From an uncultured Actinomycetes bacterium (GTDB taxonomy: Bacteria > Actinomycetota > Acidimicrobiia > Acidimicrobiales > Ilumatobacteraceae): a DNA stretch of 64,000 nt. Below are positions 2,786 through 36,259 of this stretch, one piece after another. How positions within the stretch are numbered: position 1 is the stretch's first letter; every line of letters starts with the position of its first letter. Where the stretch lies: assembly GCA_963802395.1 (NCBI GenBank), contig CAWDIP010000005.1:851363-915362 (forward strand), read 5' to 3'. The position numbers were made by a program, and so were the translations under genes. Under the pieces are notes generated by a model. It ran no database searches. It had not been told where the DNA came from and was given only the letters and a program-made list of their open reading frames with translations.

Positions 2786-3415
2786 ATGTTCGCCTCGATC
2801 ATCAGTGATTTCACCGACAGCCTGTTCGAGCTCTCGGGGAACTGGTGGTTCCTCGGCGTGATCTTCGCCATCGCCTTCTTCGACTCGGTGATCCCGATCG
2901 TGCCGAGCGAAACGTGTGTGATCATGGGCGGAATCGCCGCGTCGCAAGGTGAGTACTCGGTGTTCCTCGTCATCGCCTTCGGCGCAGCCGGTGCGTTCCT
3001 CGGCGACAACACCGCCTATCAGATCGGCGCTCGCGCCGGACCGTGGTTCGAACGTCGCGCGGCTCGCAAGGAGAAGACGCGAAAGCGGCTGGAGTGGGCC
3101 CAGGAGCAGATCAGCGAACGCGGCGGCCTGCTGCTGATCACCGCCCGGTTCATCCCGGGAGGCCGCACTGCGCTCACGATCTCGAGCGGCATCACTCGGC
3201 AGTCACGGCGGTGGTTCGTCGGATGGATCACCGTTGCGGTCTGCATCTGGGCCACCTACGCGGCGATGCTCGGCTTCGTCGGCGGCAAGGCTGCGAAGGA
3301 CAACCACACCGCAGCGTTCATGATCGCGTTCGGTACTGCACTGGCCGTCAACGTCGTGATCGAGGTCGTGCGCCACGTGCGCAAGCAGCGTGCCGTGCCC
3401 GAGCCGGTGAGCTGA
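2786..3415 (+). CDS. DedA/SNARE-associated (VTT domain) family inner-membrane protein
   Basis: 209 aa, multi-TM. The conserved DedA core FFDSVIPIVPSETCVIMGG...GDNTAYQIG...ITARFIPGGRTALTISSG is present. Confidence 0.75.
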   Translation: MFASIISDFTDSLFELSGNWWFLGVIFAIAFFDSVIPIVPSETCVIMGGIAASQGEYSVFLVIAFGAAGAFLGDNTAYQIGARAGPWFERRAARKEKTRKRLEWAQEQISERGGLLLITARFIPGGRTALTISSGITRQSRRWFVGWITVAVCIWATYAAMLGFVGGKAAKDNHTAAFMIAFGTALAVNVVIEVVRHVRKQRAVPEPVS

Positions 3416-3424
3416 CCGATCGGG

Positions 3425-4962
3425 TCAATGCTCGATCGGCGGTCCCGCCAGCTCGCCGTCAGGATAACGCCACGCAAGGAGTAGGCCCACGCCGAGTGCC
3501 ACGCAGGCCGATACCCGGAGCCCGACATGCCCGCCGGCAACGAACGCGTCACGCACCGATTGGAGAAAGGCGTCGGCCTGCTCGGCTCCGAGGGTGTCGG
3601 CCATCCCTCGGGCCACTCCCGCTGCCCGACCGACATTGCGTCGTGCCTGCTCCGCCAGTTCGGGAGGAAGCGTGTCGAGCGCGCCAGCTACGCGACTGCG
3701 GTAGACCGACGTCACCACGCTGCCCACGATGGCGATTCCGATCGCTCCGCCGAGCTCGCGGGTGGTGTCGTTCACGGCTGAGCCGACACCTGCCTTGTGC
3801 ATCGGAACGCTGCTCATGATCCCGCCCGTGAACGACGGCATCGTGACGGCCATTCCGGCCGCGATCACGACAAGGGTGCCGGCGATGAACACGTAGGACG
3901 TGCGCTGCCCGCACAGCGACAAGCCGAACAACCCGGCGGCGGCGAGCATCGGACCGACCGACACGCATCGTTTGACGCCGAATCGTTTGGCGATGGCTGC
4001 GGACCTCGGCGACACGATGATCATCGTCACGGCGAACGGCAAAGACGCCACCCCGGAATGCAGCGCGCTGTATCCCCTCACGTACTGCAGGAACTGGGTG
4101 AGGACGAAGAAGGTCGAGAACATCGCGAGGAACATGCACGTGATCCCGATGCTCGAGAACGTGAACCGCGGCAGCCGGAACAGACCCATGTCGAGCATCG
4201 GCTCGGCGATGCGTCGCTCCCATGCCACGAACCCGGCGAGGCCGAGCGCTGCGACGAGGAAGCTGCCGCTGACGAGACCCGAGGTCCAGCCTTTCTCGGG
4301 GCCTTCGATGATGGCGAAGAGCAACGCGCTGAAACCCACAATTGACAGCACGGCCCCGACCGGATCGAGCTTCACCGCCCGCTGCTCCTTCGACGTCGGG
4401 GCGAGCATCCAGATCATGACGAACGCGACGGCGGCGATCGGCACGGCGACGAAGAAGACCGAGCCGTACCAGAACCGCCCGAGCAGAGCGCCGCCCATGA
4501 TCGGCCCGATCGCGCCGCCGGCGCCGGCGAAGCCGGCCCACGTCGCGATGGCCTTTTGACGCTCGTGCGGCGGGAACACGCTCGTGAGGAGCGAAAGCGT
4601 CGCCGGCATGATGAGTGCGGCGCCGACTCCCATCAACGCCCGGCAGGCGATGAGGACGTTCGGCGACGACGACTGACTGCAGAGCACCGAGGCCAGCGCG
4701 AAGATCACCAGACCCAGGAGCAGCGCCCCTTTCGTCCGAAACGGTCACCGAGTGCCCCCGCGAACAGCAACAGCCCGGCGAAGACGAGTGCGTAGGCGTC
4801 GACGATCCACAGGATCTGGGTGTCCGTGGGCCGAAGTGTTTCGGCGAGCGTCGGGATGGCGACGTTCACCGAGCTCACCGACGCCACCACCAGCACGAGG
4901 CTGAGGCAGAGGGCGCCCAGGATGTACCACCGCCGCTGATAAGCGTGGGGTTCGATCCCGAA
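3425..4962 (-). CDS. MFS transporter, EmrB/QacA (14-TMS drug:H+ antiporter) family; frameshifted near 4728-4745
   Basis: Two minus-strand ORFs (4705..5373 and 3425..4708) join into one MFS protein. The N-terminal part reads MVNETMVESFGIEPHAYQRRWYILGALCLSLVLV...GDRFGRKG, then the frame changes at a CCCCTTT run and continues ALLLGLVIFALASVLCSQ...RALMGVGAALIMPATLSLL. The total length is about 510 aa, typical for this family. Confidence 0.75.
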
Positions 4963-5026
4963 GCTCTCCACCATCGTCTCGTTCACCATCGCCCCTCCAA
5001 ATTCCCGGCCGCCACCGTACCGCCAC

Positions 5027-5081
5027 CCCTTCTGATCGCGTTTGGACGGCACCTGGGGTGCGCCGAACGCACCAAGAATCG
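5027..5081 (+). repeat. copy A of conserved ~57-nt intergenic element (CCCCTTCTGATCGCGTTTGGACGGCACCTGGGGTGCGCCGAACGCACCAAGAATCG), in the 5' leader of fixB
   Basis: About 80% identical to the copies at 12774-12831 (same orientation) and 8504-8565 (inverted). It lies about 60 nt upstream of the fixB ATG. Confidence 0.6.
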
Positions 5082-5143
5082 AAGCCGGCAGCGCGGCGAC
5101 CCCGCCTGGTCGACCCGGGGAGCGGGTCGGTAGCCTCGCCTCG

Positions 5144-6048
5144 ATGCTTGCGCTCGTCCCGGTTCGAGGAGGTTCCCTGCCGGCGGGCGGAGCCGAGTCC
5201 GTCGCCGAGGCCGAGGGTCGCGCCCTCGTGGTGGGTGAGGGCGCCGTGGTCGCAGCGGAGGAGCTCGTCGGTGTCGCCCACCACGTCGATGCCATCGAAC
5301 TCGGCCACTTCTTGCCCGGCGGCGTGGGCCGCCACCCTCGCGGAGATCCTGGCGCGACGAGCGCGTCGATCATCCTGCCGGCCTGTCCCGATGGTCGCGA
5401 TCTCGCGCCTCGCCTCGCCCATCTCCTCGGGTGGCCGCTTCACGCCGGCGCAGTGGCGATCGGACGAGAGCGGGTGACCTTGGCGCGGCGCGGGGGCCTG
5501 GTGCTCGAAACGGTCGACATCGACGGGGCGTTCGTCGCCACACTCCTTCCAGGGGTGCGAGGAGTCGATCCCGGCTCCCATGCTGCGCCCATCGAAGCCC
5601 GGAGCATGCGCATTGTTGACGGGGTGCGACGACGCCGAAGTCGTCGAAGTGCTTCCGCCCGACGTGACCACCATGGATCTCTCCGAGGCGCCGAGGATCC
5701 TCGGCGGCGGGGCCGGTCTCGCTGGAGCCGAGGCATTCGACGATCTGTCCAAGGTGGCTACCGCGCTCCATGCGTCGATGGGTGCGACCCGGGTGATCAC
5801 CGACCGGGGCTGGCTGGCCCACGACCGCCAGATCGGCACGACGGGGGTGGTGGTGAACCCGAAGTTGTACCTCGCCTTCGGGATCTCGGGCGCCGTCCAG
5901 CACACGCTCGGGCCTGGGCAACCCTGATCACATCATCAGCGTCAACACCGACCCGCACTGCCCGATGATGCAACTCGCCGATGTCGCCATCGTCTCCGAC
6001 GCCAACGAAGTGCTCGAACAGCTCCGGTCGAGGTTGTGTCATGGCTGA
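5144..6048 (+). CDS. fixB: electron transfer flavoprotein alpha subunit (EtfA/FixB); two frame disruptions (~5560-5600 and ~5915-5930)
   Basis: The N-terminal domain MLALVPVRGG...VDAIELGHF...DGRDLAPRLAHLLGWPL is in one frame. The FAD domain (RILGGGAGL...ITDRGW...QIGTTG...NPKLYLAFGISGAVQH) is in a second frame. The C-terminus (IISVNTDPHCPMMQLADVAIVSDANEVLEQL) is in a third frame and ends with ATGA overlap onto fixC. Confidence 0.75.
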
Positions 6049-7345
6049 CGTCGACGTCATCGTCGTGGGCGCCGGACCTGCCGGGTCCTGTGCCGCGCTG
6101 AGCCTGGCGCGAGCCGGGCGGAGCGTCATCCTGTTGGAGCGCGGTCCGTTCCCCGGCTCGAAGAACATGTACGGCGGGGTGGTCTACCCACGGATCCTCG
6201 ATCAGCTCATCCCGAACTGGTGGGACGAAGCGCCGATCCAACGATGGGTGACCCGACGGTCGACGATGTTGATGACCCCGACCCAAGCGATGACCGTCGA
6301 CTTCCGCACGCAGGCCTGGGCGGCACCGCCCTACAACGGTGCCACCGCGTACCGACCCGACTTCGACCACTGGCTGGCATCGAAGGCTCAAGCCGAAGGC
6401 GCGCAGCTGGTCTGCTCGACCACGGTCACCGGGCTGCTGCGTGATCAGCGAACCGGACGGGTCCTCGGCGTCACGACCGATCGTCCGGATGGCGAGCTCA
6501 CAGCCGACGTCGTCATCGCGTGTGACGGCGTGAACAGCTTCATCGCCAAGGAAGCCGGCCTCTACGGCAAGGTCGACGCGGCCAACTACACGCTCGGTGT
6601 CAAAGAGACCCTCGCCCTCCCGAAAGACGTCATCGACGAACGATTCGGCGTGCGCGGCAACGAGGGGGTCGACATCGAGATCCTCGGTGGCACCGGGCAC
6701 GTGAACGGAGGGGGGTTCGTGTACACGAACCTCGACACGCTCGCGGTCGGCGTGGTGCTCAAACTGCCGAAGCTCGCCGCCCAACGCGAGCGACCGGAGG
6801 CGATCATCGCATCGTTGAAGGCCCATCCTGCGATCGCTCCGCTGGTCGAGGGCAGCGAGGTGAAGGAGTACTCCGCTCACCTCATCCCCGAAGCCGGTTG
6901 GACGATGCTCCCGACCCTCGCCACCGACGGGCTGCTCATCGCCGGGGATGCTGCTGCGCTGTGCCTCGCTGCCGGTGTGTGGCTCGAAGGAGTCAACTTT
7001 GCGATGGCATCGGGCATGTACGCCGGGCAGACGGCAGCCGCGGCCCTTCGAGCGGGCGACACCACGGCTCGCGGCCTCGGCGGCTATCGGCGACGTCTCG
7101 AGGAGACGTTCGTGCTGAAGGACCACCGCAAGCTACGGGCCGTGCCCAACCTGGTCCTCAGCGATCGCGTGCAGCATCAATACCCCTCGCTGGTCAACAA
7201 CGTTGTCGAGCGCATGTTTCGAGTCGACAATCCGTTGCCGAAGCCGGGACTCCGGCGAATCCTCAGCCAGGAGCGCAAGCGGGCGGGCGTCAAGATCAAG
7301 GACCTCGCCGTCGATGCGTGGACCGGGATCCGGAGCTTCGGATGA
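6041..7345 (+). CDS. fixC: electron-transfer flavoprotein:quinone oxidoreductase, FAD-dependent (FixC)
   Basis: About 434 aa. MADVDVIVVGAGPAGSCAALSLARAGRSVILLERG is the dinucleotide-binding fold, and overall similarity is to FixC/ETF-QO. The stop overlaps the fixX start. Confidence 0.85.
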   Translation: MADVDVIVVGAGPAGSCAALSLARAGRSVILLERGPFPGSKNMYGGVVYPRILDQLIPNWWDEAPIQRWVTRRSTMLMTPTQAMTVDFRTQAWAAPPYNGATAYRPDFDHWLASKAQAEGAQLVCSTTVTGLLRDQRTGRVLGVTTDRPDGELTADVVIACDGVNSFIAKEAGLYGKVDAANYTLGVKETLALPKDVIDERFGVRGNEGVDIEILGGTGHVNGGGFVYTNLDTLAVGVVLKLPKLAAQRERPEAIIASLKAHPAIAPLVEGSEVKEYSAHLIPEAGWTMLPTLATDGLLIAGDAAALCLAAGVWLEGVNFAMASGMYAGQTAAAALRAGDTTARGLGGYRRRLEETFVLKDHRKLRAVPNLVLSDRVQHQYPSLVNNVVERMFRVDNPLPKPGLRRILSQERKRAGVKIKDLAVDAWTGIRSFG

Positions 7346-7659
7346 AGATCACCACTTCGAGCGGCGATCGCGACTGGCCCGAGATCTCGTTCGAGGACCG
7401 CATGGCCACGGCGGAGTTCCGAGTGCACGAGCGGCCCCACATCACGGTCGACAGCGATGTCTGTCGAAGCTGCACCACGCAGGAGTGCACCGTCGCGTGC
7501 CCGGCCAACCTCTTCATCCCCACCGCAGCCGGTGGCATCCTGTTCAACTACGAGCATTGCTTCGAGTGCGGCACCTGCTATCTGGTGTGCAACAAGGAAG
7601 GCGCCATCACCTGGTCCTACCCGGAGGGTGGGCACGGCGTGGTGTTCAAACGCACATGA
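7342..7659 (+). CDS. fixX: ferredoxin-like protein FixX
   Basis: 105 aa. MKITTSSGDRDWPEISFEDR...CRSCTTQECTVACPANLF...CFECGTCYLVCNKEGAITWSYPEGGHGVVFK matches the FixX 4Fe-4S ferredoxin-like family. It is translationally coupled to fixC and fixA. Confidence 0.8.
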   Translation: MKITTSSGDRDWPEISFEDRMATAEFRVHERPHITVDSDVCRSCTTQECTVACPANLFIPTAAGGILFNYEHCFECGTCYLVCNKEGAITWSYPEGGHGVVFKRT

Positions 7660-8480
7660 CCATCGGCGTCTGCATGAAGTGGGTCGATCGACGACCCGAG
7701 TTGCACGAGAACTCCGTAGCACCCACCGATGCCCGGTTCGCTGGCGTGTCAGCCGCCGATCAGTCCGCGTTGGAGCTCGCTCTGCGCACGGCAGCGGCGT
7801 GGGACGAGGATGTCGTGGCAGTGACCGTCGGACCGTCGGCGGCCATCGCCGTGCTGCGCGATGCACTCGCAGCAGGAACCCACCGAGCCGTGCACGTCGT
7901 CGCACCGGCTGAGCTCGACAGCGCTGGAGTGGCGAGCGTCATCGCGCCCGTCGTCGCCGACTGTTCACTCGTGTGGTGCGGCGACTACAGCCTCGACCGC
8001 GGAACCGGTTCGGTCCCAGCGTTCCTCGCGGCGCACCTCGGTGCCGCCCAGGCGCTCGGGCTGGTGCACGTCGAGCTCGGCTCGGACCGGACCGTGATCG
8101 GGTTGCGCCGTCTCGATGGCGGCCGGCGAGAACGGCTTCGCATCACCGGACCAGCCGTGATCTCCGTCGAAGGCCACGTGGCACCGCTCCGTCGAGCGTC
8201 ACTCGCGGCCGCGATCGCCGCCGGCCGCGCCGGGGTCGTCGAGCTCCATCCCGCGCTCCCAGCCGGCGATCCACGACGCTCCTCGCGGCCTTTCCGTCCG
8301 CGCGCCCGAGTGCTCGCTCCTCCGAGCGGAAGCACCGCCCTCAGCCGGATCGAAGTGCTCACCGACTCGACCGGTAGTCCCACCCGCGGCGAAGTCGTGA
8401 CGCTGGCACCGAGTCAGGCCGCCCACCACATCCTGCAGACCCTGGCCGACTGGGGCTACCTACCCCCCGACGCGATCTGA
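7656..8480 (+). CDS. fixA: electron transfer flavoprotein beta subunit (EtfB/FixA)
   Basis: 274 aa. MTIGVCMKWVDRRPEL...VVAVTVGPSAAIAVLRDALAAGTHRAVHV...CSLVWCGDYSLDRGTGSVPAFLAAHLG matches the ETF beta family. ATG 7656 overlaps the fixX stop. Confidence 0.8.
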   Translation: MTIGVCMKWVDRRPELHENSVAPTDARFAGVSAADQSALELALRTAAAWDEDVVAVTVGPSAAIAVLRDALAAGTHRAVHVVAPAELDSAGVASVIAPVVADCSLVWCGDYSLDRGTGSVPAFLAAHLGAAQALGLVHVELGSDRTVIGLRRLDGGRRERLRITGPAVISVEGHVAPLRRASLAAAIAAGRAGVVELHPALPAGDPRRSSRPFRPRARVLAPPSGSTALSRIEVLTDSTGSPTRGEVVTLAPSQAAHHILQTLADWGYLPPDAI

Positions 8481-8503
8481 CGGCGTCATCCAACCGGGAC
8501 CCT

Positions 8504-8565
8504 GCGATTCTTGGTGCGTTTCGTGTACCCCGTGTGCCGATGGAACGCGATCAGAATGTTGGGGG
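8504..8565 (-). repeat. copy C (inverted) of the conserved ~57-nt intergenic element, between fixA and the PQQ-propeller gene
   Basis: The reverse complement reads CCCCAACATTCTGATCGCGTTCCATCGGCACACGGGGTACACGAAACGCACCAAGAATCGC. Confidence 0.6.
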
Positions 8566-8583
8566 TGGGTACGGTGCGGGGGG

Positions 8584-10140
8584 ATGGGAGGGAGCCCGGG
8601 GTCGACGTGGGGCCGCGGTGCGGTGTTGGCCGTTGCGGGGGTGACGTTGGCGGTGGGCGTGGCTCGGGCATCGGCTGCTGATGAGGCCCACGATGTCGAG
8701 GCCCAGCGCCCCACCCAGCCCGACAGCGGGGTGAGCGACGCGGGAACCGGACCTGCCTCGACGGCCACGGTCGTCGCCGAGGCGGCTCAACTGGAGCCGC
8801 TGGCGGATCCGGCGGGCTTCCAGCAGCCGTGGGGCGACACGGTGGAGGGACTGCTCACGTTCCGGGGCAATCCGACCCGCTCGTACCACGGCGAGGGCCC
8901 GGTTCCGGCCGAACCGGTGGTCCGGTGGCGGTACCCCGACGATCGCATGTGCAGTCTGTCGACCGAGTTCAACCAGACCCGAGAATGGTGCGGCACCGGC
9001 TGGACCGGGCAACCCGCCGTGTTCGAGCGAGGCGGGCGCACGTGGGTGGTGTTCGGTGCCTACGACGCCAAGATCCACTTCGTCGACGGCGCGACGGGCG
9101 AAGAGATCCTCCCCCCGCTCGAGACCGGCGATCTCGCCAAGGGAGCCATCACCGTCGACCCCGACGGCTACCCGCTCGTCTATGCCGGTTCGCGTGACAA
9201 CGAGCTGCGGGTCATCGCCATCGACCGACCCGAACCGACGGTGCTGTGGAGCCTCGACGCCGCCGACGCCGGCGAAGGGCGATGGAACGACGACTGGGAC
9301 GCGGCGCCGTTGGTGGTCGCCGACCACCTCGTCGAAGGTGGCGAGAACAGTCGGCTCCACGTGATCGCGCCTCACCGCGCGCTACGACGGCCGACGGCTC
9401 GGTGGCGGTCGCTCCTCGGCTGGTGTGGAGCGCCCCCGGCTGGGACGACCAGCTCCTGGCCGACCTCGGCGACCACCGGGTGAGCTTCGAGAGCTCGGTG
9501 ATGATGCTCGGCGACATCGCCTATCTCGCCAACTCGGGCGGTCTCGTCCAGGGATGGGACCTGTCGTCGTTGCGAACGGATGCCCCGACACCGCAGCGGG
9601 TGTTGCGCTTCTGGACCGGCGACGACACCGACGCCACCATCGTCGGCGACGCCGAGGGCTTCCTGTACGTGGGGGTCGAGGTCGACCGCGACACCGAGCG
9701 CGGGCCACGCCATCGGCCAGTTGCTGAAGCTCGATCCGCGCCGCCCGGAGGCGCCGGTGGTCTGGTCGGTCGACGTCGACGGCGGCGACAACAGCGGCAG
9801 CTGGTCCACGGCCGCCGTCGTGGGCGACACGGTGATCTGGCCCACCAAGCCGGGCCGAGTCTTCGGGATCGATCGCGCAGTCGGGCTCGACCCGCTGGAC
9901 CCTGCAACTGCCCGGCCCGATGATCGGTTCGCCGACCGTCGTCGACGGCACGATGGTGCTCGGCGACGCCCGAGGAGTCCTCCACGCGTTCACGCTCGGC
10001 GACGGAACGCTGCCGCCCGACCGAGGCCTGGCAGATCACGCTCGGTGGCACCATCGAGTCGACCGCGGCGGTCTGGCGCGGCTCGATCTACGTGGGCACC
10101 CGCGACGGCCACCTCTTCTCGATCGGTGGTCGGATCGTGA
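8584..10140 (+). CDS. secreted PQQ-like / BamB-like beta-propeller repeat protein; at least 4 frame disruptions
   Basis: A signal-peptide-like N-terminus (AVLAVAGVTLAVGVARASAA) is followed by repeated propeller-blade motifs (WVVFGAYDAKIHFVDGATGEEI, PLVYAGSRDNELRVIAIDRPEPTVLWSL, DIAYLANSGGLVQGWDLSS, DTVIWPTKPGRVFGIDRAVG, SIYVGTRDGHLFSIGG). These are spread over 4-5 successive reading frames between 8584 and 10140. The proposed 3' end assumes a TGA at 10138-10140 overlapping the mftE GTG. Confidence 0.6.
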
Positions 10141-10808
10141 GGCTCGGGCCGGCAACGTGGTCGGAGCTCGAGTCCGATGCGCGGCCCATCGTGGTGCTGC
10201 CATTGGGCTCGTGCGAGCAGCACGGGCCGCATCTCCCGCTCGACACCGACACCCGCATCGCCGTCGCGCTCGCCGAACGCCTCGCCGCCCAACGCGGACG
10301 GGGTGCTCGTTGCGCCGCCGCTCGCGTTCGGCGCGAGCTGGGAACATCACGGGTTCCCCGGGCTGCTGTCGCTCGACGGCGGAGTTGCTCGCCGAGCTGC
10401 TCGTCGAGCTCGCCCGTTCGGCCGACTGGTCCGGCGGGCTGGTGTTCGTGAACGGCCACGGCGGCAACCTGCACGGCGTTCGCGACGCCGTTCGCCGGAT
10501 CACGTTCGAGGAGCGCCGGGTCATGTCGTGGTCGCCCCAGATCCCGGGCGAGCGATGCCCACGCCGGACGCACCGAGACCTCGATCATGCTCGCCCTTGA
10601 CCCCGAGCTGGTCCGCTCCGATCGGCTGGCTCACGGGTGGACCGGGGACCTGACGGCGGTCCAGGCGCACGGCGTCGCGGCAGTGAGCGAGCAGGGCGTG
10701 CTCGGCGACCCGACGGCAGCGACCGCCGCGGAGGGCCACGAGGTGCTCGACGACCTCACCGCCGATCTGCTCGCCCGCTTCGACGAGTGGTGCCGGCCCC
10801 CACCGTGA
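10137..10808 (+). CDS. mftE: creatininase-family protein, mycofactocin system MftE-like; 2-3 frame disruptions
   Basis: PIVVLPLGSCEQHGPHLPLDTDTRIAVALAERLAA matches the EQHGPHLPLDTDT signature of MftE. Further fragments (LVAPPLAFGASWEHHGFPG, LVFVNGHGGN, and DAHAGRTETSIMLALDPELV...GVAAVSEQGVLGDPTAATAAEG in a later frame) complete the family pattern. The stop at 10806-10808 overlaps the mftF GTG. Confidence 0.7.
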
Positions 10809-12258
10809 GATACGTCGTCGATCCGGCACTCGCTCGGTGGAGGAGCGCGCGATCGTCATCGGCGGATCGCCGCTCACGCTGTTCCGGCTCACGGTCGCCG
10901 GAGCCGAGTGGTGACGGCCATCCAGGGCGGCGATCCGCTGCCGCCCGGGCACGAGCGACTCACCGATCGACTGCTCGACGCCGGAGCGATCCACCCGGCC
11001 CCGGAGCCCGGCGACGGCGCCCGGCCCGAGGATGTGACGGCGGTGATCCCCGCGGTACGCGACTGGCCCCGACGATCTCGGCCGGCTCGTCGAGGGGCTC
11101 ACGGCCGAGGGAGTACGTCGTTGATCGTCGTCGACGACGCATCCCCGATCCCGCTCACTCGCCGCATCGCCGGCGCGCTGCTCGGTGGAGATGATCCGGC
11201 TCGACCGACAACTCGGGTCCGGGCGGTGCCCGCAACGCCGGTGCGCAGCGCGTGGAGACCCCGTTCGTGGTGTTCGTCGACGCCGACACCGAGCTAACGC
11301 CGGGATGGTTGGCACCCCTGCTCGCGCACATGGGCGACGCACGGGTCGGGCTCGTCGCGCCACGGGTCGAGCCGACCCCGGGGCACGGCGACCGGTTGGC
11401 GCGATTCGAGGCATGGCGGTCGCCCCTCGACCTCGGTCCCGCTCCCGCCCGAGTGCGCGCCGGGAGCCGGGTGAGTTACGTGCCGGCCGCCGCGGTCGCT
11501 CGTGCGGGTGGCGGCCTTTCGGGCGGTCGGCGGGTTCGACCCCGAGCTTCGCTTCGGCGAGGACGTCGATCTGGTCTGGCGGCTCGACGAGGCGGGCTGG
11601 CGCTGCCGGTACGAGCCGGCGTCCGTCGTGACCCACGGACCCGACCCGAGCTGCGGGCGTGGGTCCGTCAGCGATACGAGTACGGCACCTCGGCGGCTCC
11701 GCTCGCCGGTCGCCACCCCGGTGCCCTCGCTCCGGTCCGGGTCAGCGGCTGGAGCGCCCTCGCATGGGGCGTCGGGCACGCTGGTGTCGCCGCTCGCCGG
11801 CATCGCCATCGGTGCGGGCACGACCGCTCGCCCTGGTCCGCAAGCTCCGGCCGATGGAGCATCCGTTCGCCGAGGCGTCCCGGCTCGGCCGGCCTCGGCA
11901 ACCTGTTCGCCGGACGCATCCTCGCCGCCGCCCTGACCCGGGCCTGGTGGCCGATCGCGCTCGTGGCCGCGCTGTGTCACGCCGCGCCCGCCGGGTCGTC
12001 ATCTTGGCCGCGCGTGCTGCCGACCCTGTTCGAGTGGGCGACGCGACCGACCGGCGCTCGACCCGGTCTCGGCGCTCGGTCTCCGCATGCTCGACGACGT
12101 GGCCTACGGCGCCGGCGTGTGGGCCGGCATGGCCGCGCCACCGCACGCTCGATCCGCTCCGCCCCGATCTCGCGGAACTGGCCCGGCAACTCGGGACGGC
12201 GCAGCGAGCCGACCGGAGCGAGCTCGATCAGGAGCTGAGCTGGCAGCCGCTCGGATGA
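10805..12258 (+). CDS. mftF: family-2 glycosyltransferase, mycofactocin system MftF-like; multiple frame disruptions
   Basis: Fragments collinear with mycobacterial MftF occur across at least 5 frame switches: [53 protein letters not shown]...[34 protein letters not shown]...GLVAPRV...[13 protein letters not shown]...[43 protein letters not shown] and the C-terminal [10 protein letters not shown]. Confidence 0.65.
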
Positions 12259-12822
12259 GGTCGCTGCAGTCGACGCACACCGACTCGGGAACGATCCCCC
12301 ACCGCATCAGCCGGGCGAAGATCACGCAGCCGAGGCAGAATCCGAAAGCCGCTTCGAGGAACGCCGCCCCGGTGAGCCCGGCGATCAGCACGCAGTGCGA
12401 CGGCCGGTGGGCGCCGCGCAGCCACGGCGACCGAGGCCCGAGGCCGTGAAGGCGCGCACCGATGCCCTGGGCGAACCGCTTCGGGCGGGCCGGCCACCAG
12501 GCGGTGCGCGCCACCGAACCGGGGCGACGACGACCTGGGTGACGAACTGGCCGAGCGGGCTCAGCGTCGGGCCGGTGAGGACCCGGGCGAGGAATCCGTA
12601 GGTCAGCGGGAACAGCACCCAACCCGATCCAAGGCCGAGGAAGGCAACGGCCTGCAGCACGACGCCGCTGGCCACCAGCCGGGCCGAGGTCTCGTTGACC
12701 GTGTTGGGGAACCCGAAGACACGCTTCACGCCCGCCACCCTACCCCAATACCCGACCAACTCAGTCAACTTTCCCCCTTCTGATCGCGTCTTGACCGGCA
12801 GACGGGGGGCGACCGAACGCAC
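12228..12822 (-). CDS. DUF4395-family small membrane protein (C-terminal CxxC motif); probably one frame disruption
   Basis: KRVFGFPNTVNETSARLVASGVVLQAVAFLGL...WVLFPLTYGFLARVLTGPTLSPLGQFVTQVVVAP is in one frame. It continues in another frame as KRFAQGIGARL...AFLEAAFGFCLGCVIFARLMRWGIVPESVCVDCSD. The ends are approximate, and the 3' end is convergent with and overlaps mftF. Confidence 0.45.
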
Positions 12823-12831
12823 CAGGAATCC
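12774..12831 (+). repeat. copy B of the conserved ~57-nt intergenic element, immediately upstream of the alanine-racemase-fold gene
   Basis: CCCCCTTCTGATCGCGTCTTGACCGGCAGACGGGGGGCGACCGAACGCACCAGGAATCC. It ends about 15-25 nt before the gene start. Confidence 0.6.
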
Positions 12832-12845
12832 GGCTGGCGGCTAGC

Positions 12846-13815
12846 GTGCCGCGCCGATGGCCCTCGTGCTCACCGTGGAGCAGCCGGTGTGGTGGGATCA
12901 CGTCACTCGAGGTCGCCGAGCGGCTCGGCGACCGGCTCGTCCCCGTCATCAAGGGCAACGGCTACGGCCTCGGCCGGGCGACCTGGACGCGGTCGGTGGC
13001 CGAACTCGGGCTCGAGCAGGTCGCGTCGGAACGGTCGCACGAACTGCTCGACGTCACCGCGGCGACTCCGCCAGCTCGTCCTCACCCCAGCCTCGACGAC
13101 CCGATCGACGGTGTTCCCGACGACGCCGTGCTGACCGTCGGTTCGCGCTCCACAGCTCGAAGCCGCACGTGCTCATCGGCGGTCCGCTGGCGATCAAGCT
13201 GCGATCCTCGATGCAGCGCTACGGGGTCGCCGCCGACGAGCTCCCAACGATGCTCGATCGCGGTCCCTGCGGCTCGACCGCTTCGTACTCCACCTCCCCC
13301 TCGCCGGCACCGACGACGACCGCGTGGCCGAGATCGAGGCATGGCTCGCCCACCTCCCCGGCAGGTATCGACGCTCTCGGTGAGCCACCTCTCGATCGAC
13401 TCGTTCGAGGCGCTCGCCGCCCGCCACCCCCGACGGCGGTTCCGCAGCTCCGCATGGGCACCGCTCTGTGGCACGGCGACAAGTCGGCGTTCCACCTCGG
13501 GTGCCGAGTCGTCAACGAGGTACGGCCCGTCACCGACGGCGCCCGCGCCGGGTATCGGCAGGTTCCCGTGCCGGTCAGCGGCCACCTGGTGATGATCGGC
13601 GGCGGGCTCTGCCCACGGGCGTCAGCCCACTCCCCGACGGGCGAAGCCCCTTCCACTTCGATCACCAGCGACTCGAGCTCCTCGAAGGGCCCCACATGCA
13701 CACCTCGATCGCTCTCGTCCCCGAGGGCTGCGCCTGCCCGACGAGTCGGCGAGGTCGTCGACGTCCAGCGTCCGCTCACCCAGGTGCAGCCCGACCGATC
13801 GTGTGGCTCCGATGA
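12846..13815 (+). CDS. alanine racemase N-terminal-domain (fold-type III PLP) protein; at least 3 frame disruptions
   Basis: LVPVIKGNGYGLGRA is the PLP-lysine motif of the Ala_racemase_N family. Later fragments (HVLIGGPLAIKLRSSMQRYGV, LRLDRFVLHLPLAG, LSVSHLSIDSFEAL, MGTALWHGDKSAFHLGCRVVNEVRPVTDGARAGYRQVPVPVSGHLVMIGGG, DGRSPFHFDHQRLELLEGPHMHTSIALVP) lie in alternating frames. Confidence 0.55.
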
Positions 13816-24701: not shown

Positions 24702-24822
24702 CCACCCTCGCGTTCGTTCACCCGACCCCCGGCTGCCGGGGCGGCAGTGAACAAACGTGGATCGGTGGGGCGGTGCGGGCGCACGTTCCCACTGGTGGCG
24801 GCACGGTGGCTACATTCGGCGC

Positions 24823-34056: not shown

Positions 34057-34428
34057 CGAGGACCTCCAGAGACGTACCGGGTGACGTAGTGATCGGGACG
34101 TTACCGCCGCCGACCACGTCAGGAGCGCTCCTGGTCGATGGTTGGCACCCACTCCTGGTCCGTTCAGGCGGTCCTGCGGCAGGCTCGCCCACGTCTGTTC
34201 CTGGCCAAGAAGGGATCAAGTTCACGGCCGCCCTCACACCGTGGCCAGGTGTGACAGGCGTCGGCCCCCGACGACAGTCACGCTCGGCGCCCTTCTGCCA
34301 CCTACCGTGGGCTGGGAGAATGACGAAAAGACGCCCGTCCGGGTTGACGGACTTGACCGCGTGGGTATCGTGATCAACGTCCCGTCCGGCCGGGTAGTAT
34401 CCCCGGCCTTCACCCCTCCGAGAGGTGG

Positions 34429-35373
34429 ATGTCCGTGGCCAAGGATCGCGTCGAGCGAGACGAGGAAGATCTGGTCCGGCTGTATCTGACCGATATCGGC
34501 CAGTACACGCTGTTGACCAAAGACGACGAAGTTCGTCTCGCCAAGCAGATCGAGGCGGGCAAGACTGCCGCTGCGGAGTTGGAGAAGGGTGGCAAGGAGC
34601 TCTCCGCTTCGAAGAAGCGCGAGCTTCGTCGCCTTGCCCGAGAAGGGGAAGAGGCCGAACGAGCGTTCGTCCAGTCGAACCTTCGACTCGTCGTCTCCAT
34701 CGCCAAGAAGTACCAGGCGTCGGGGCTCCCCCTCCTCGACTTGATCCAGGAGGGCAATCTCGGCCTCATGCACACGGTCGAGAAGTTCGACTGGCGCAAG
34801 GGCTTCAAGTTCTCCACGTATGCCACGTGGTGGATTCGTCAGGCGATCACCCGCGGCATCGCCAACACCGGACGCACGATTCGGCTCCCGGTCCACGCGG
34901 GCGACACGCTCGCCCGGTTGCAGAAGGCCCGGGCCCGGCTCGAACTCAAGATGGGCCGCCCGGCGACCCTGTCGGAGCTCGCCCGCGAAGTGGAGATGCC
35001 CGAGGACAAGGTGACCGAGGCGCTGCGCTTCGCCGCCGAGCCCCTCTCGCTCTCCGAACCGCTGCGCGAGGACGGCGACGCCGAGCTCGGCGACGTCGTC
35101 GAGGACCGGTCGGCCGAGAGCCCCTTCGAGGTGGCTGCCACTGCGCTGCTTCCCGACGAGATCAACCGGTTGCTCGCCCCGCTCGACGATCGGGAACGCG
35201 AGATCCTGAAGTTGCGCTTCGGCCTCGATCGCGGCGAGCCACGCACGCTCGAAGAGGTCGGTGAGCACTTCAACCTCACCCGGGAGCGCATCCGCCAGAT
35301 CGAGGCCCGAGCCATGAGCAAGCTGCGCCACCCGTCGAGCGACACCGGCGCACGAGACCTGCTCGCCGTCTGA
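34429..35373 (+). CDS. sigB: RNA polymerase sigma factor, group 2 (SigB-like) sigma-70
   Basis: Intact 314 aa. Region 2 (DLIQEGNLGLMHTVEKFDWRKGFKFSTYATWWIRQAI), region 3, and region 4 (LREILKLRFGLDRGEPRTLEEVGEHFNLTRERIRQIEARAMSKLRH). There is no long region 1.1, so it is not the principal SigA. Confidence 0.85.
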   Translation: MSVAKDRVERDEEDLVRLYLTDIGQYTLLTKDDEVRLAKQIEAGKTAAAELEKGGKELSASKKRELRRLAREGEEAERAFVQSNLRLVVSIAKKYQASGLPLLDLIQEGNLGLMHTVEKFDWRKGFKFSTYATWWIRQAITRGIANTGRTIRLPVHAGDTLARLQKARARLELKMGRPATLSELAREVEMPEDKVTEALRFAAEPLSLSEPLREDGDAELGDVVEDRSAESPFEVAATALLPDEINRLLAPLDDREREILKLRFGLDRGEPRTLEEVGEHFNLTRERIRQIEARAMSKLRHPSSDTGARDLLAV

Positions 35374-35464: not shown

Positions 35465-36259
35465 TCACAGGCGCTGGGCGGTGCGGCCCATCATGGTGTT
35501 CCGGTAGATCACGGCGAACGAGCACAGGCCGAACGAGGTGAGGGCGAACTGCAAGATGGCGCCGAGGATCGGTCCGAGGACCGGGATGACGCCGAGGATC
35601 GTCGCGATCACCGCAGCGGCGATCAGCAGGCCGAGGAACACGAGGAACACGAGAATGATGTTGCCCGATTGCTCTTTGACCGCCGCGAAGCTGGCGCCCA
35701 GCGGGTTCTCACCGTCGGCTCGGCGTTCCATCGCGGCGAACGGAACGAGACAGAGGAAGAAGGCCGCGATGAGCCCCGGCAGGACGCACAGCACGAGCCC
35801 GATTGCCACGATGATGGCGGCCACGATCGACCAGAGCAGGTAGGCACCGGCCCGCGAAGTGGCCTGCTGGAAGAGCGCCCCGATCGCCATCGGCTCATGG
35901 TCGACAGCAGCCAACGCCAACCGAGTGGTGGCGAGGGAACCGATGATGCTGACGACCACCGAGATCGCGGCCACGAGCAACAGACCGGCAGTCTCCGGAT
36001 CGTCGCCATTGATGAGTGCTCCGAGCAATCCGTTGATCACCCCGACGATCACCGCAACGATCACGAAGTCCTTGAGTCGCGCCCGGAACGCCGCCCAACC
36101 GCGGCTCAGCACCGCCCCGACGCTGAGCGGCCCTTCTCCCGGGGCAGGCGGTTGGTACATGCCGCCGGGCGGAATCGGTGGGGGCGGCGGCGGCCCGGGC
36201 GGCGGCGGGGGCGGCGGCGGCCCGGGCGGCGGCGGGGGCGGCGGCGGCGGCATGCTCAT
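35465..36259 (-). CDS. membrane protein with proline-rich N-terminus (PPPPPPPPPPGPPPPPPPPGPPPPPP) and 6 predicted TM helices
   Basis: About 264 aa. MSMPPPPPPPPPGPP...GMYQPPAPGEGPLS is followed by hydrophobic helices (FVIVAVIVGVINGLLGALING, LLLVAAISVVVSIIGSL, and others). The Pro-repeat is encoded by a GGC/GGG tandem DNA repeat. Confidence 0.55.
   Translation of the reverse strand: MSMPPPPPPPPPGPPPPPPPPGPPPPPPIPPGGMYQPPAPGEGPLSVGAVLSRGWAAFRARLKDFVIVAVIVGVINGLLGALINGDDPETAGLLLVAAISVVVSIIGSLATTRLALAAVDHEPMAIGALFQQATSRAGAYLLWSIVAAIIVAIGLVLCVLPGLIAAFFLCLVPFAAMERRADGENPLGASFAAVKEQSGNIILVFLVFLGLLIAAAVIATILGVIPVLGPILGAILQFALTSFGLCSFAVIYRNTMMGRTAQRL
36179..36250. repeat. tandem ~27-bp GC-rich repeat (GGGGCGGCGGCGGCCCGGGCGGCGGC x ~2.6) encoding the poly-Pro tract
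   Basis: Direct repetition is visible in the sequence at 36181-36250. Confidence 0.6.

Follow-up and report, generated by a model that had tools for sequence, protein, structure and literature searches.

We report an intergenic element of 51-53 nucleotides (nt) that occurs three times, as the copies c1, c2 and c3, in a 64-kb stretch of DNA (hereafter the window) from an uncultured member of the Ilumatobacteraceae (contig CAWDIP010000005.1). The copies fill the three promoter-bearing intergenic regions that follow one another in a gene cluster, the order of which is kept in relatives: an MFS efflux gene, the fixBCXA operon, an operon of β-propeller, creatininase-family and GT2 genes, a DUF4395 gene and a gene with an Ala_racemase_N fold (Table 1). 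This all-consecutive placement has a probability of P about 0.01 if the copies fell at random among some 25 promoter regions, a number that is a rough, uncounted assumption. Our tentative reading, to which we give somewhat less than an even chance, is that the element is a lineage-specific operator, copied to three promoters as a shared site for a putative regulator. A module that acts at the DNA level is favored because the copies lie at three consecutive promoters with consistent spacing, because substitutions avoid the conserved boxes, and because c1 appears to replace the TetR operator of the relatives.

In the mechanism that we propose, the element would be a composite, quasi-palindromic operator in double-stranded DNA, about 51-53 bp long and made of three conserved boxes, which is bound by a putative and probably oligomeric transcription factor encoded outside the window. 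Sitting on the arm over the -35 region, this factor would act on the promoters of the MFS gene (c1), the propeller-creatininase-GT2 operon (c2) and the Ala-racemase-like gene (c3), and its binding would co-regulate the operons of the cluster, most simply through repression by occlusion. The sequence would have been copied to the three promoters within the lineage, taking over from a TetR protein and its palindrome at the MFS/fixB intergenic region. Protein binding, the sign of regulation and the replacement of the TetR system are the parts of this mechanism that we infer.

Copies and architecture of the element

A preliminary description of this DNA had placed three copies at these sites with roughly 80% identity, and both points were borne out. 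The gapped pattern TTCTGATCGCGT-N5-9-GGCA-N2-4-GGGG has three matches in the window against none expected (100 shuffles); the right arm, AACGCACCA(A/G)GAATC, is limited in the window to the same three sites; and an nhmmer profile made from the three copies retrieves them with E = 5e-19, 1e-17 and 6e-17, the next-best match in the 64 kb having E > 1. A covariance model run on the window has the identical outcome. No fourth copy was detected in the window by the nhmmer profile, the covariance model or single-arm patterns, and no isolated arm (TTCT-N4-GCGT) is present elsewhere in it; the center box, CGGCA-N3-GGGG, has two more matches in the window, at 24727 and 57683, which is chance level. The inverted pair c1/c2 constitutes the longest inverted repeat of the window (55 nt at 80%).

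In the three-copy alignment 38 of the 53 columns are invariant, and pairwise identity ranges from 77 to 83%, with 44 of 53 positions shared by c1 and c3 and 41 of 53 (77%) by c2 and c3. Two spacers of c3 are longer by one base each, and its right arm has an A-to-G change. The similarity stops at sharp edges, beyond which the flanking sequences are unrelated except for a C-run next to the TTCT arm. The conserved sequence is organized in three boxes: a left arm, TTCT-GATC-GCGT; a center, CGGCA-N3-GGGG; and a right arm, ACGC-ACCA-AGAA-TC, within which TTCTGATCGCGT, CGGCA, GGGG, AACGCACCA and GAATC are invariant. The two arms are 26-28 nt apart and match each other in inverted orientation at 8 of 12 positions; the center box is asymmetric.

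The 15 variable columns are concentrated in the three spacers between these boxes (runs test, P about 0.01). An earlier formulation of ours, saturated spacers against frozen boxes, was dropped once a count showed that nearly all variable columns are single changes; for the same reason it is the clustering of the changes that has to carry the argument for selection. The case for purifying selection on the boxes is therefore no more than moderate, recency being the alternative. A micro-ORF (open reading frame) in the element was ruled out, since the indels between the copies disrupt any reading frame.

Position of the copies relative to predicted promoters

Five -10 boxes are predicted next to the three copies (Table 1). 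Their assignment rests on two-species footprinting, because the corresponding start codons of the syntenic relative L004 have an identical or nearly identical hexamer at a similar distance: the L004 MFS gene has TACCGT and a GGGAGGG leader; its propeller gene has the same TACGGT, 8 nt before a GTG, with N-termini that align; its DUF4395 gene has TAGGGT 6 nt before the ATG; and its Ala-racemase-like gene has TAGGGT 7 nt before the ATG, the N-termini being MALVLTV in the window and MAVVLTV in L004. At fixB, the sequence GTAGCCT is invariant across four aligned relatives. Hexamers of the form TAnnnT are scarce in the window, with 19 on the plus and 24 on the minus strand (43 together; TA occurs 509 times) against an expectation of about 160 from the TA and T frequencies on both strands of the 64 kb, a roughly four-fold depletion. 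Five of these 43 flank the three copies, and many stand 6-9 nt before an ATG or GTG (for example those at 2771, 5131, 8570, 12737, 12842, 23103 and 27866). Judging from these sequence features, promoters of this genome seem to consist of a -10 box only and its mRNAs to be mostly leaderless; of the five genes behind the boxes in Table 1, four look leaderless.

All three copies lie upstream of all five predicted -10 boxes, so that read-through from fixA over c2 is the sole way in which a copy might be transcribed. The gap between the nearest arm and the -10 box is 10 nt at c1 (TTCT arm, MFS), 13 nt at c2 (TTCT arm, propeller) and 11 nt at c3 (GAATC arm, Ala-racemase-like), which sets that arm at about -37 to -24 from the predicted transcription start, over the -35 region. 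In each divergent pair the remaining promoter is farther away, that of fixB 50 nt and that of DUF4395 35 nt from the other arm. When the element is placed at random within the same intergenic regions, three gaps that all lie at 10-13 nt arise with P = 0.002, and three gaps that share any 4-nt window with P = 0.047; the common arm-to-promoter spacing is hence suggestive, not conclusive. This geometry departs from the preliminary description, which had each copy directly ahead of a gene start on the plus strand: c1 and c3 are situated between divergent genes and c2 follows fixA, and the -10 boxes nearest to the copies are those of the MFS gene (on the minus strand), the propeller gene and the Ala-racemase-like gene, not that of fixB. 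The shared regulator site that it had suggested for the ETF, racemase and mycofactocin-like genes survives as the best-supported option but with a different gene set, the MFS gene, the propeller-creatininase-GT2 operon and the Ala-racemase-like gene being closest.

At 17 nt upstream of the -10 box each copy has a different hexamer, which rules the element out as a donor of -35 sequences; a -35 consensus is likewise missing from the window's other promoters. Promoter and terminator consensus scans of the three regions gave nothing, the scanner requiring a -35 match that the promoters here lack. An ECF (extracytoplasmic function)-type promoter inside the element was rejected by inspection, and a sigma-54-type promoter looks unlikely; the sigma-54 arrangement GG-N10-GC (-24/-12) is loosely fitted in c1 (GGCAC-N5-GTGC) and c3, c2 has AC at -12, and the orientation suits the downstream gene in two of the three copies. 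Elsewhere in the window, the sole transcription-related gene that was found belongs to the sigma-70 family (34357-35370; regions 1.2, 2, 3 and 4); three TAnnnT hexamers stand close together near it, at 34303, 34366 and 34395, one of them with a TTGAC-containing -35-like sequence.

Relatives of the cluster and a lost TetR system

The comparison covered the syntenic relatives L001-L006, L030 and L031, with MFS identities of 85%, 76%, 72% and 69%. Neither the nhmmer profile nor the covariance model detects the element at any of these syntenic loci, whose MFS proteins are 69-85% identical. Their MFS/fixB intergenic region has a TetR-type palindrome, TTTCGCTAC-N6-GTAGCGAAA, which is a perfect 9-bp inverted repeat in L004-L006 and is represented by a single arm in L001-L003; in the relatives it is limited to the MFS/fixB promoter, and in L004 it spans 9923-9946, 15 nt upstream of the MFS -10 box. 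In all close relatives the MFS gene is followed by a TetR gene (TetR_N + TetR_C_11), at 5766-6338 in L001, 6278-6919 in L002 and 11565-12158 in L004, and the palindrome is presumably the operator of this co-transcribed TetR.

Both components are missing from the window: tblastn finds no TetR homologue of either TetR type, and the relatives' TetR palindrome is absent by nhmmer, pattern search and alignment. The stops of the MFS (3425) and DedA (3415) genes are 10 nt apart, the TetR gene being cleanly gone. Relative to these loci the window further lacks another TetR gene (TetR_C_33), the MFS gene that is its partner, and the GNAT gene that separates fixA from the propeller gene, at the spot now taken by c2. 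The copy c1 occupies the equivalent place of the palindrome, 10 nt upstream of the same MFS -10 box, and the MFS/fixB intergenic region is of similar length in the window (154 nt) and in L004 (141 nt); the element therefore appears to have taken the place of the older sequence, as opposed to a mere addition. The region equivalent to c2 is not covered in the propeller homologue of 85% identity, which is on a 1.8-kb contig that begins within the gene.

By eye, L004 has a near-palindromic 12-13-mer, ACGGAGC(A/G)TCCG, at 1621-1640 and 5815-5835, in its DUF4395/Ala-racemase and propeller/GNAT intergenic regions; this could be a shared site in L004.

Larger collections were scanned with exact-match patterns, which diverged copies would escape. 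Across 185,579 GTDB species-representative genomes there were 15 pattern matches, all without the center boxes and close to the approximately 16 expected by chance; the JGI metagenome contigs gave five, all without the right half, and viral contigs none. BLAST against plasmids gave one chance match of 26 nt, and against phages none. As no true copy was found in the relatives or in these collections, the element is lineage-specific within the data searched and presumably young.

Comparison with known classes of sites and repeats

Descriptively, the element belongs to a class of propagated promoter-region sequences. Putative mobile promoters, a descriptive class that implies no mechanism, are defined by at least 50 nt at no less than 80% identity, within about 150 nt upstream of non-homologous coding sequences that have non-homologous neighbors (Matus-Garcia, Nijveen and van Passel, 2012; PMC3488235). 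The element shares with them a non-coding nature, a length in the range of 50-100 nt, an identity of about 80% and a location no more than about 150 nt upstream of genes that are not homologous and have unrelated neighbors. Over 51-55 nt, the pairs c1-c2 (55 nt at 80%) and c1-c3 fall within the published definition, with flanking genes from unrelated families, while c2-c3, at 77%, is below the cut-off and is linked via c1. Unlike putative mobile promoters, the copies here do not extend beyond a single syntenic cluster in the window and are upstream of ancestral, conserved -10 boxes; given that the copied unit excludes these boxes, the propagation concerned a module adjoining the promoter, not a promoter.

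With the TetR operator of the relatives, the element has in common its location over the MFS -35 region and its inverted-repeat character, but it is unrelated in sequence, roughly double in length, and found at three promoters against one. The mycobacterial MftR operator (T-N2-GGCA-N5-TGCC-N2-A, 27 bp; PMC8728441) is comparable in its mycofactocin-associated neighborhood and in the GGCA that is invariant in the center of the element. However, the TGCC partner is absent, the sequence 5 nt downstream being GGTG, GGTA or GGGG, and both length and architecture differ; we rejected a relationship, as the shared 4-mer GGCA is no evidence of kinship. CsoR-like or MftR-like palindromes were similarly rejected, being found in c1 only or as a 4-mer only. 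The element would work in an operator-like manner at a divergent efflux-pump promoter, yet outside both the relatives' TetR-operator type and the MftR operator.

Repetitive extragenic palindromic (REP) sequences, REPINs and miniature inverted-repeat transposable elements (MITEs) are, like the element, short, intergenic, partly palindromic and multi-copy. Unlike these, the element is promoter-proximal and not at 3' ends, and its hairpin is weak and inconsistent. With three copies in the 64 kb, all within 8 kb, whose hairpins are not consistently more stable than shuffles, it does not correspond to REP/REPIN sequences. MITEs have terminal inverted repeats and target-site duplications; here the arms agree at 8 of 12 positions, and no duplicated target is seen in the flanks.

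The gene cluster around the copies

The gene map is based on Pfam scans and on tblastn with proteins from the relatives, which leave the gene labels of the preliminary description essentially correct. The window has a G+C content of 68%, and homologues of the adjacent MFS protein are nearly all from metagenome-assembled genomes of the Acidimicrobiales/Ilumatobacteraceae. In L030 and L031, mftA-mftB-mftC are present at about 17.4-18.9 kb, within 7 kb of MFS-TetR-DedA, with mftC coding for a radical SAM/SPASM protein and mftA for a 37-residue peptide ending in GVY. We therefore regard the neighborhood as mycofactocin-associated, and the creatininase and GT2 genes of the cluster as plausibly mftE and mftF; none of mftA, mftB or mftC is found in the window itself.

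Several genes are frameshifted relative to the relatives' orthologues (counts in Table 1), while purE, purK, DedA, fixC, fixX and fixA are intact. The points of frameshift are not at long homopolymers, and truncation is likewise common among homologues from very long ENA contigs, which hints at indels of long-read assembly instead of true pseudogenes. Outside the cluster, a coding region holds a GGC-rich tandem repeat (36167-36250; period 12-15 nt), which probably encodes a Gly-rich low-complexity segment.

Table 1. Copies of the element, genes of the cluster and predicted -10 boxes (window coordinates)
Feature	Coordinates	Strand	Remarks
Copy c1	5026-5080	+	CCCC + TTCTGATCGCGT-TTGGA-CGGCA-CCT-GGGG-TGCGCCG-AACGCACCAAGAATC; core 5030-5080; C-run on TTCT side 5026-5029; MFS (-)/fixB (+) divergent intergenic region
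Copy c2, inverted	8506-8565	-	core 8506-8556; C-run 8561-8565 (GGGGG on plus strand), 4 nt (AACA) off the core; 26 nt past the fixA stop (8480), ahead of the propeller gene
Copy c3	12773-12830	+	CCCCC + core; core 12778-12830; C-run on TTCT side 12773-12777; DUF4395 (-)/Ala-racemase-like (+) divergent intergenic region
purE-purK	1092-2746
DedA	2786-3415
MFS efflux gene, DHA2/EmrB-type	3425-4989	-	one frameshift, near 4710-4744
fixB-fixC-fixX-fixA operon (ETF alpha, ETF-QO-like, ferredoxin, ETF beta)	5144-8480	+	two frameshifts in fixB
Operon of secreted PQQ-like β-propeller, creatininase-family (MftE-like) and GT2 (MftF-like) genes	8584 to about 12240	+	several frameshifts: four in propeller, at least three in GT2
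DUF4395 gene	12250-12729	-	one frameshift
Ala_racemase_N-fold gene	12857-13800 (end approximate)	+	two to three frameshifts
MFS -10 box TACGGT (predicted)	5014-5019	-	24-nt leader with Shine-Dalgarno GGAGGGG; ATG at 4989
fixB -10 box TAGCCT (predicted)	5131-5136	+	ATG at 5144, 7 nt on; apparently leaderless
Propeller -10 box TACGGT (predicted)	8570-8575	+	ATG at 8584, 8 nt on; apparently leaderless
DUF4395 -10 box TAGGGT (predicted)	12737-12742	-	GTG at 12729, 7 nt on; apparently leaderless
Ala-racemase-like -10 box TAGCGT (predicted)	12842-12847	+	ATG at 12857, 9 nt on

Weighing the explanations

A number of observations weigh against the element being an operator. There is no candidate regulator in the window by Pfam scans of about 40 ORFs or by tblastn with five regulators from the relatives (TetR_C_11, TetR_C_33, TetR_C_6, HTH_67 and GNAT). 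Three copies are too few for motif statistics or a footprint of the element itself. Its absence from every relative examined makes it young, and block conservation could therefore be recency. The promoter-facing arm varies, with TTCT in c1 and c2 and GAATC in c3, and the center is asymmetric. With 38 invariant positions over some 52 bp, the element far exceeds the need of a typical operator, which points to a copy-paste origin and not to selection alone. The tests were framed post hoc and reach only P = 0.01-0.05. Finally, many of the cluster genes are frameshifted and, if these are real pseudogenes, little is left to regulate.

Some of these features are accommodated as well by the main rival, a function-less promoter-region repeat (a putative mobile promoter or mini-repeat) with no dedicated regulator, copied locally into the three intergenic regions by ectopic recombination, gene conversion or some transposition, and tolerated there with an incidental effect on expression. 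The sharp edges of similarity and the unrelated flanks, the agreement of c1-c2 and c1-c3 with the mobile-promoter definition (PMC3488235), the recent, lineage-specific origin indicated by the relatives and the exact-pattern scans, and the excess of invariant positions over what binding needs would all be in line with this, as would variable columns that are mostly single changes, which fits modest neutral divergence. It is nevertheless somewhat unlikely, since the copies stand at successive promoters, three in a row, within a single syntenic cluster, their arm-to-(-10) spacing is similar and their substitutions cluster in the spacers (P about 0.01). The vehicle is also lacking: the flanks have no target-site duplications, the terminal inverted repeat is imperfect (8 of 12 positions), a length of 51-53 nt is below the typical MITE size, no transposase or RAYT gene was noticed in the partly annotated window, and the remaining 56 kb has no more copies and no other dispersed repeat family. 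The REP/MITE-like repeat that the preliminary description had entertained is disfavored on these same counts. A further reading is a mobile operator, namely a self-contained regulator-binding module of about 52 bp copied to three mycofactocin/ETF-associated promoters and replacing TetR-operator control after the loss of TetR; taken in full, this is doubtful. A recombination or DNA-transaction site is most improbable: the alternating orientation of the copies (+, -, +) does flank each gene block with inverted copies, bracketing the fix operon and the propeller-GT2-DUF4395 block in a layout reminiscent of recombinase targets that flank invertible or excisable DNA, the GNAT gene was lost at the c2 site, and about 1.6 kb separate c1 from the junction of the TetR deletion (about 3415-3425), but gene order and orientation are as in the relatives with no inversion seen, no recombinase gene is among the window ORFs scanned, and flipping of the blocks would separate no gene from its own promoter. 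We also take the element to be unlike the attC and dif consensus sequences.

A structured RNA, be it a cis-regulatory leader, a 3' element or a small RNA, would form a hairpin by UUCU/AGAA and GCGUU/AACGC pairing around the GGCA/GGGG center. RNAalifold does predict a common imperfect hairpin in both orientations, and the c1 fold is better than shuffles (z = -2.4), but the z-scores of c1, c2 and c3 are inconsistent (-2.4, +0.4 and -0.5 forward; -1.0, -1.4 and -0.3 reverse). In these three sequences the covariation term is about zero, with one compensatory pair against several broken ones, and the paired arms, being invariant, are uninformative on structure. Both c1 and c3 are upstream of predicted -10 boxes on both strands, ahead of leaderless or short-leader genes, where no known promoter covers them; read-through could make of c2, 26 nt past the fixA stop, a U-less terminator or a stabilizer, and no terminator-like site was detected in the three regions. 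Rfam gives no match at gathering thresholds in the whole window, and at E <= 5 over 4800-13000 three weak matches (E = 1.1-3.5), none at the element, in agreement with the preliminary description, which saw no match to a riboswitch or RNA motif. Position, z-scores, the lone compensatory pair and the Rfam result together disfavor the leader RNA that had been considered; the element is unlikely to act as RNA, and we hold a structured RNA of any of these kinds to be highly improbable. Explanations other than those named here are, taken together, also unlikely.

Implications

Were the element a neutral propagated repeat, it would be a minor curiosity. If it is an operator, the lineage would have regained coordinated control of its operons after the loss of a local repressor by copying one long module, the operons in question being those of an efflux pump, the ETF/FixABCX system and mycofactocin-associated, maturation-like genes. 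If the mobile operator is true, the cluster would represent the rewiring of a regulon caught mid-course, via propagation of a binding site rather than turnover by point mutation. As an operator, the element would also offer an entry to regulation in the Acidimicrobiia, a poorly studied and mostly uncultured group.

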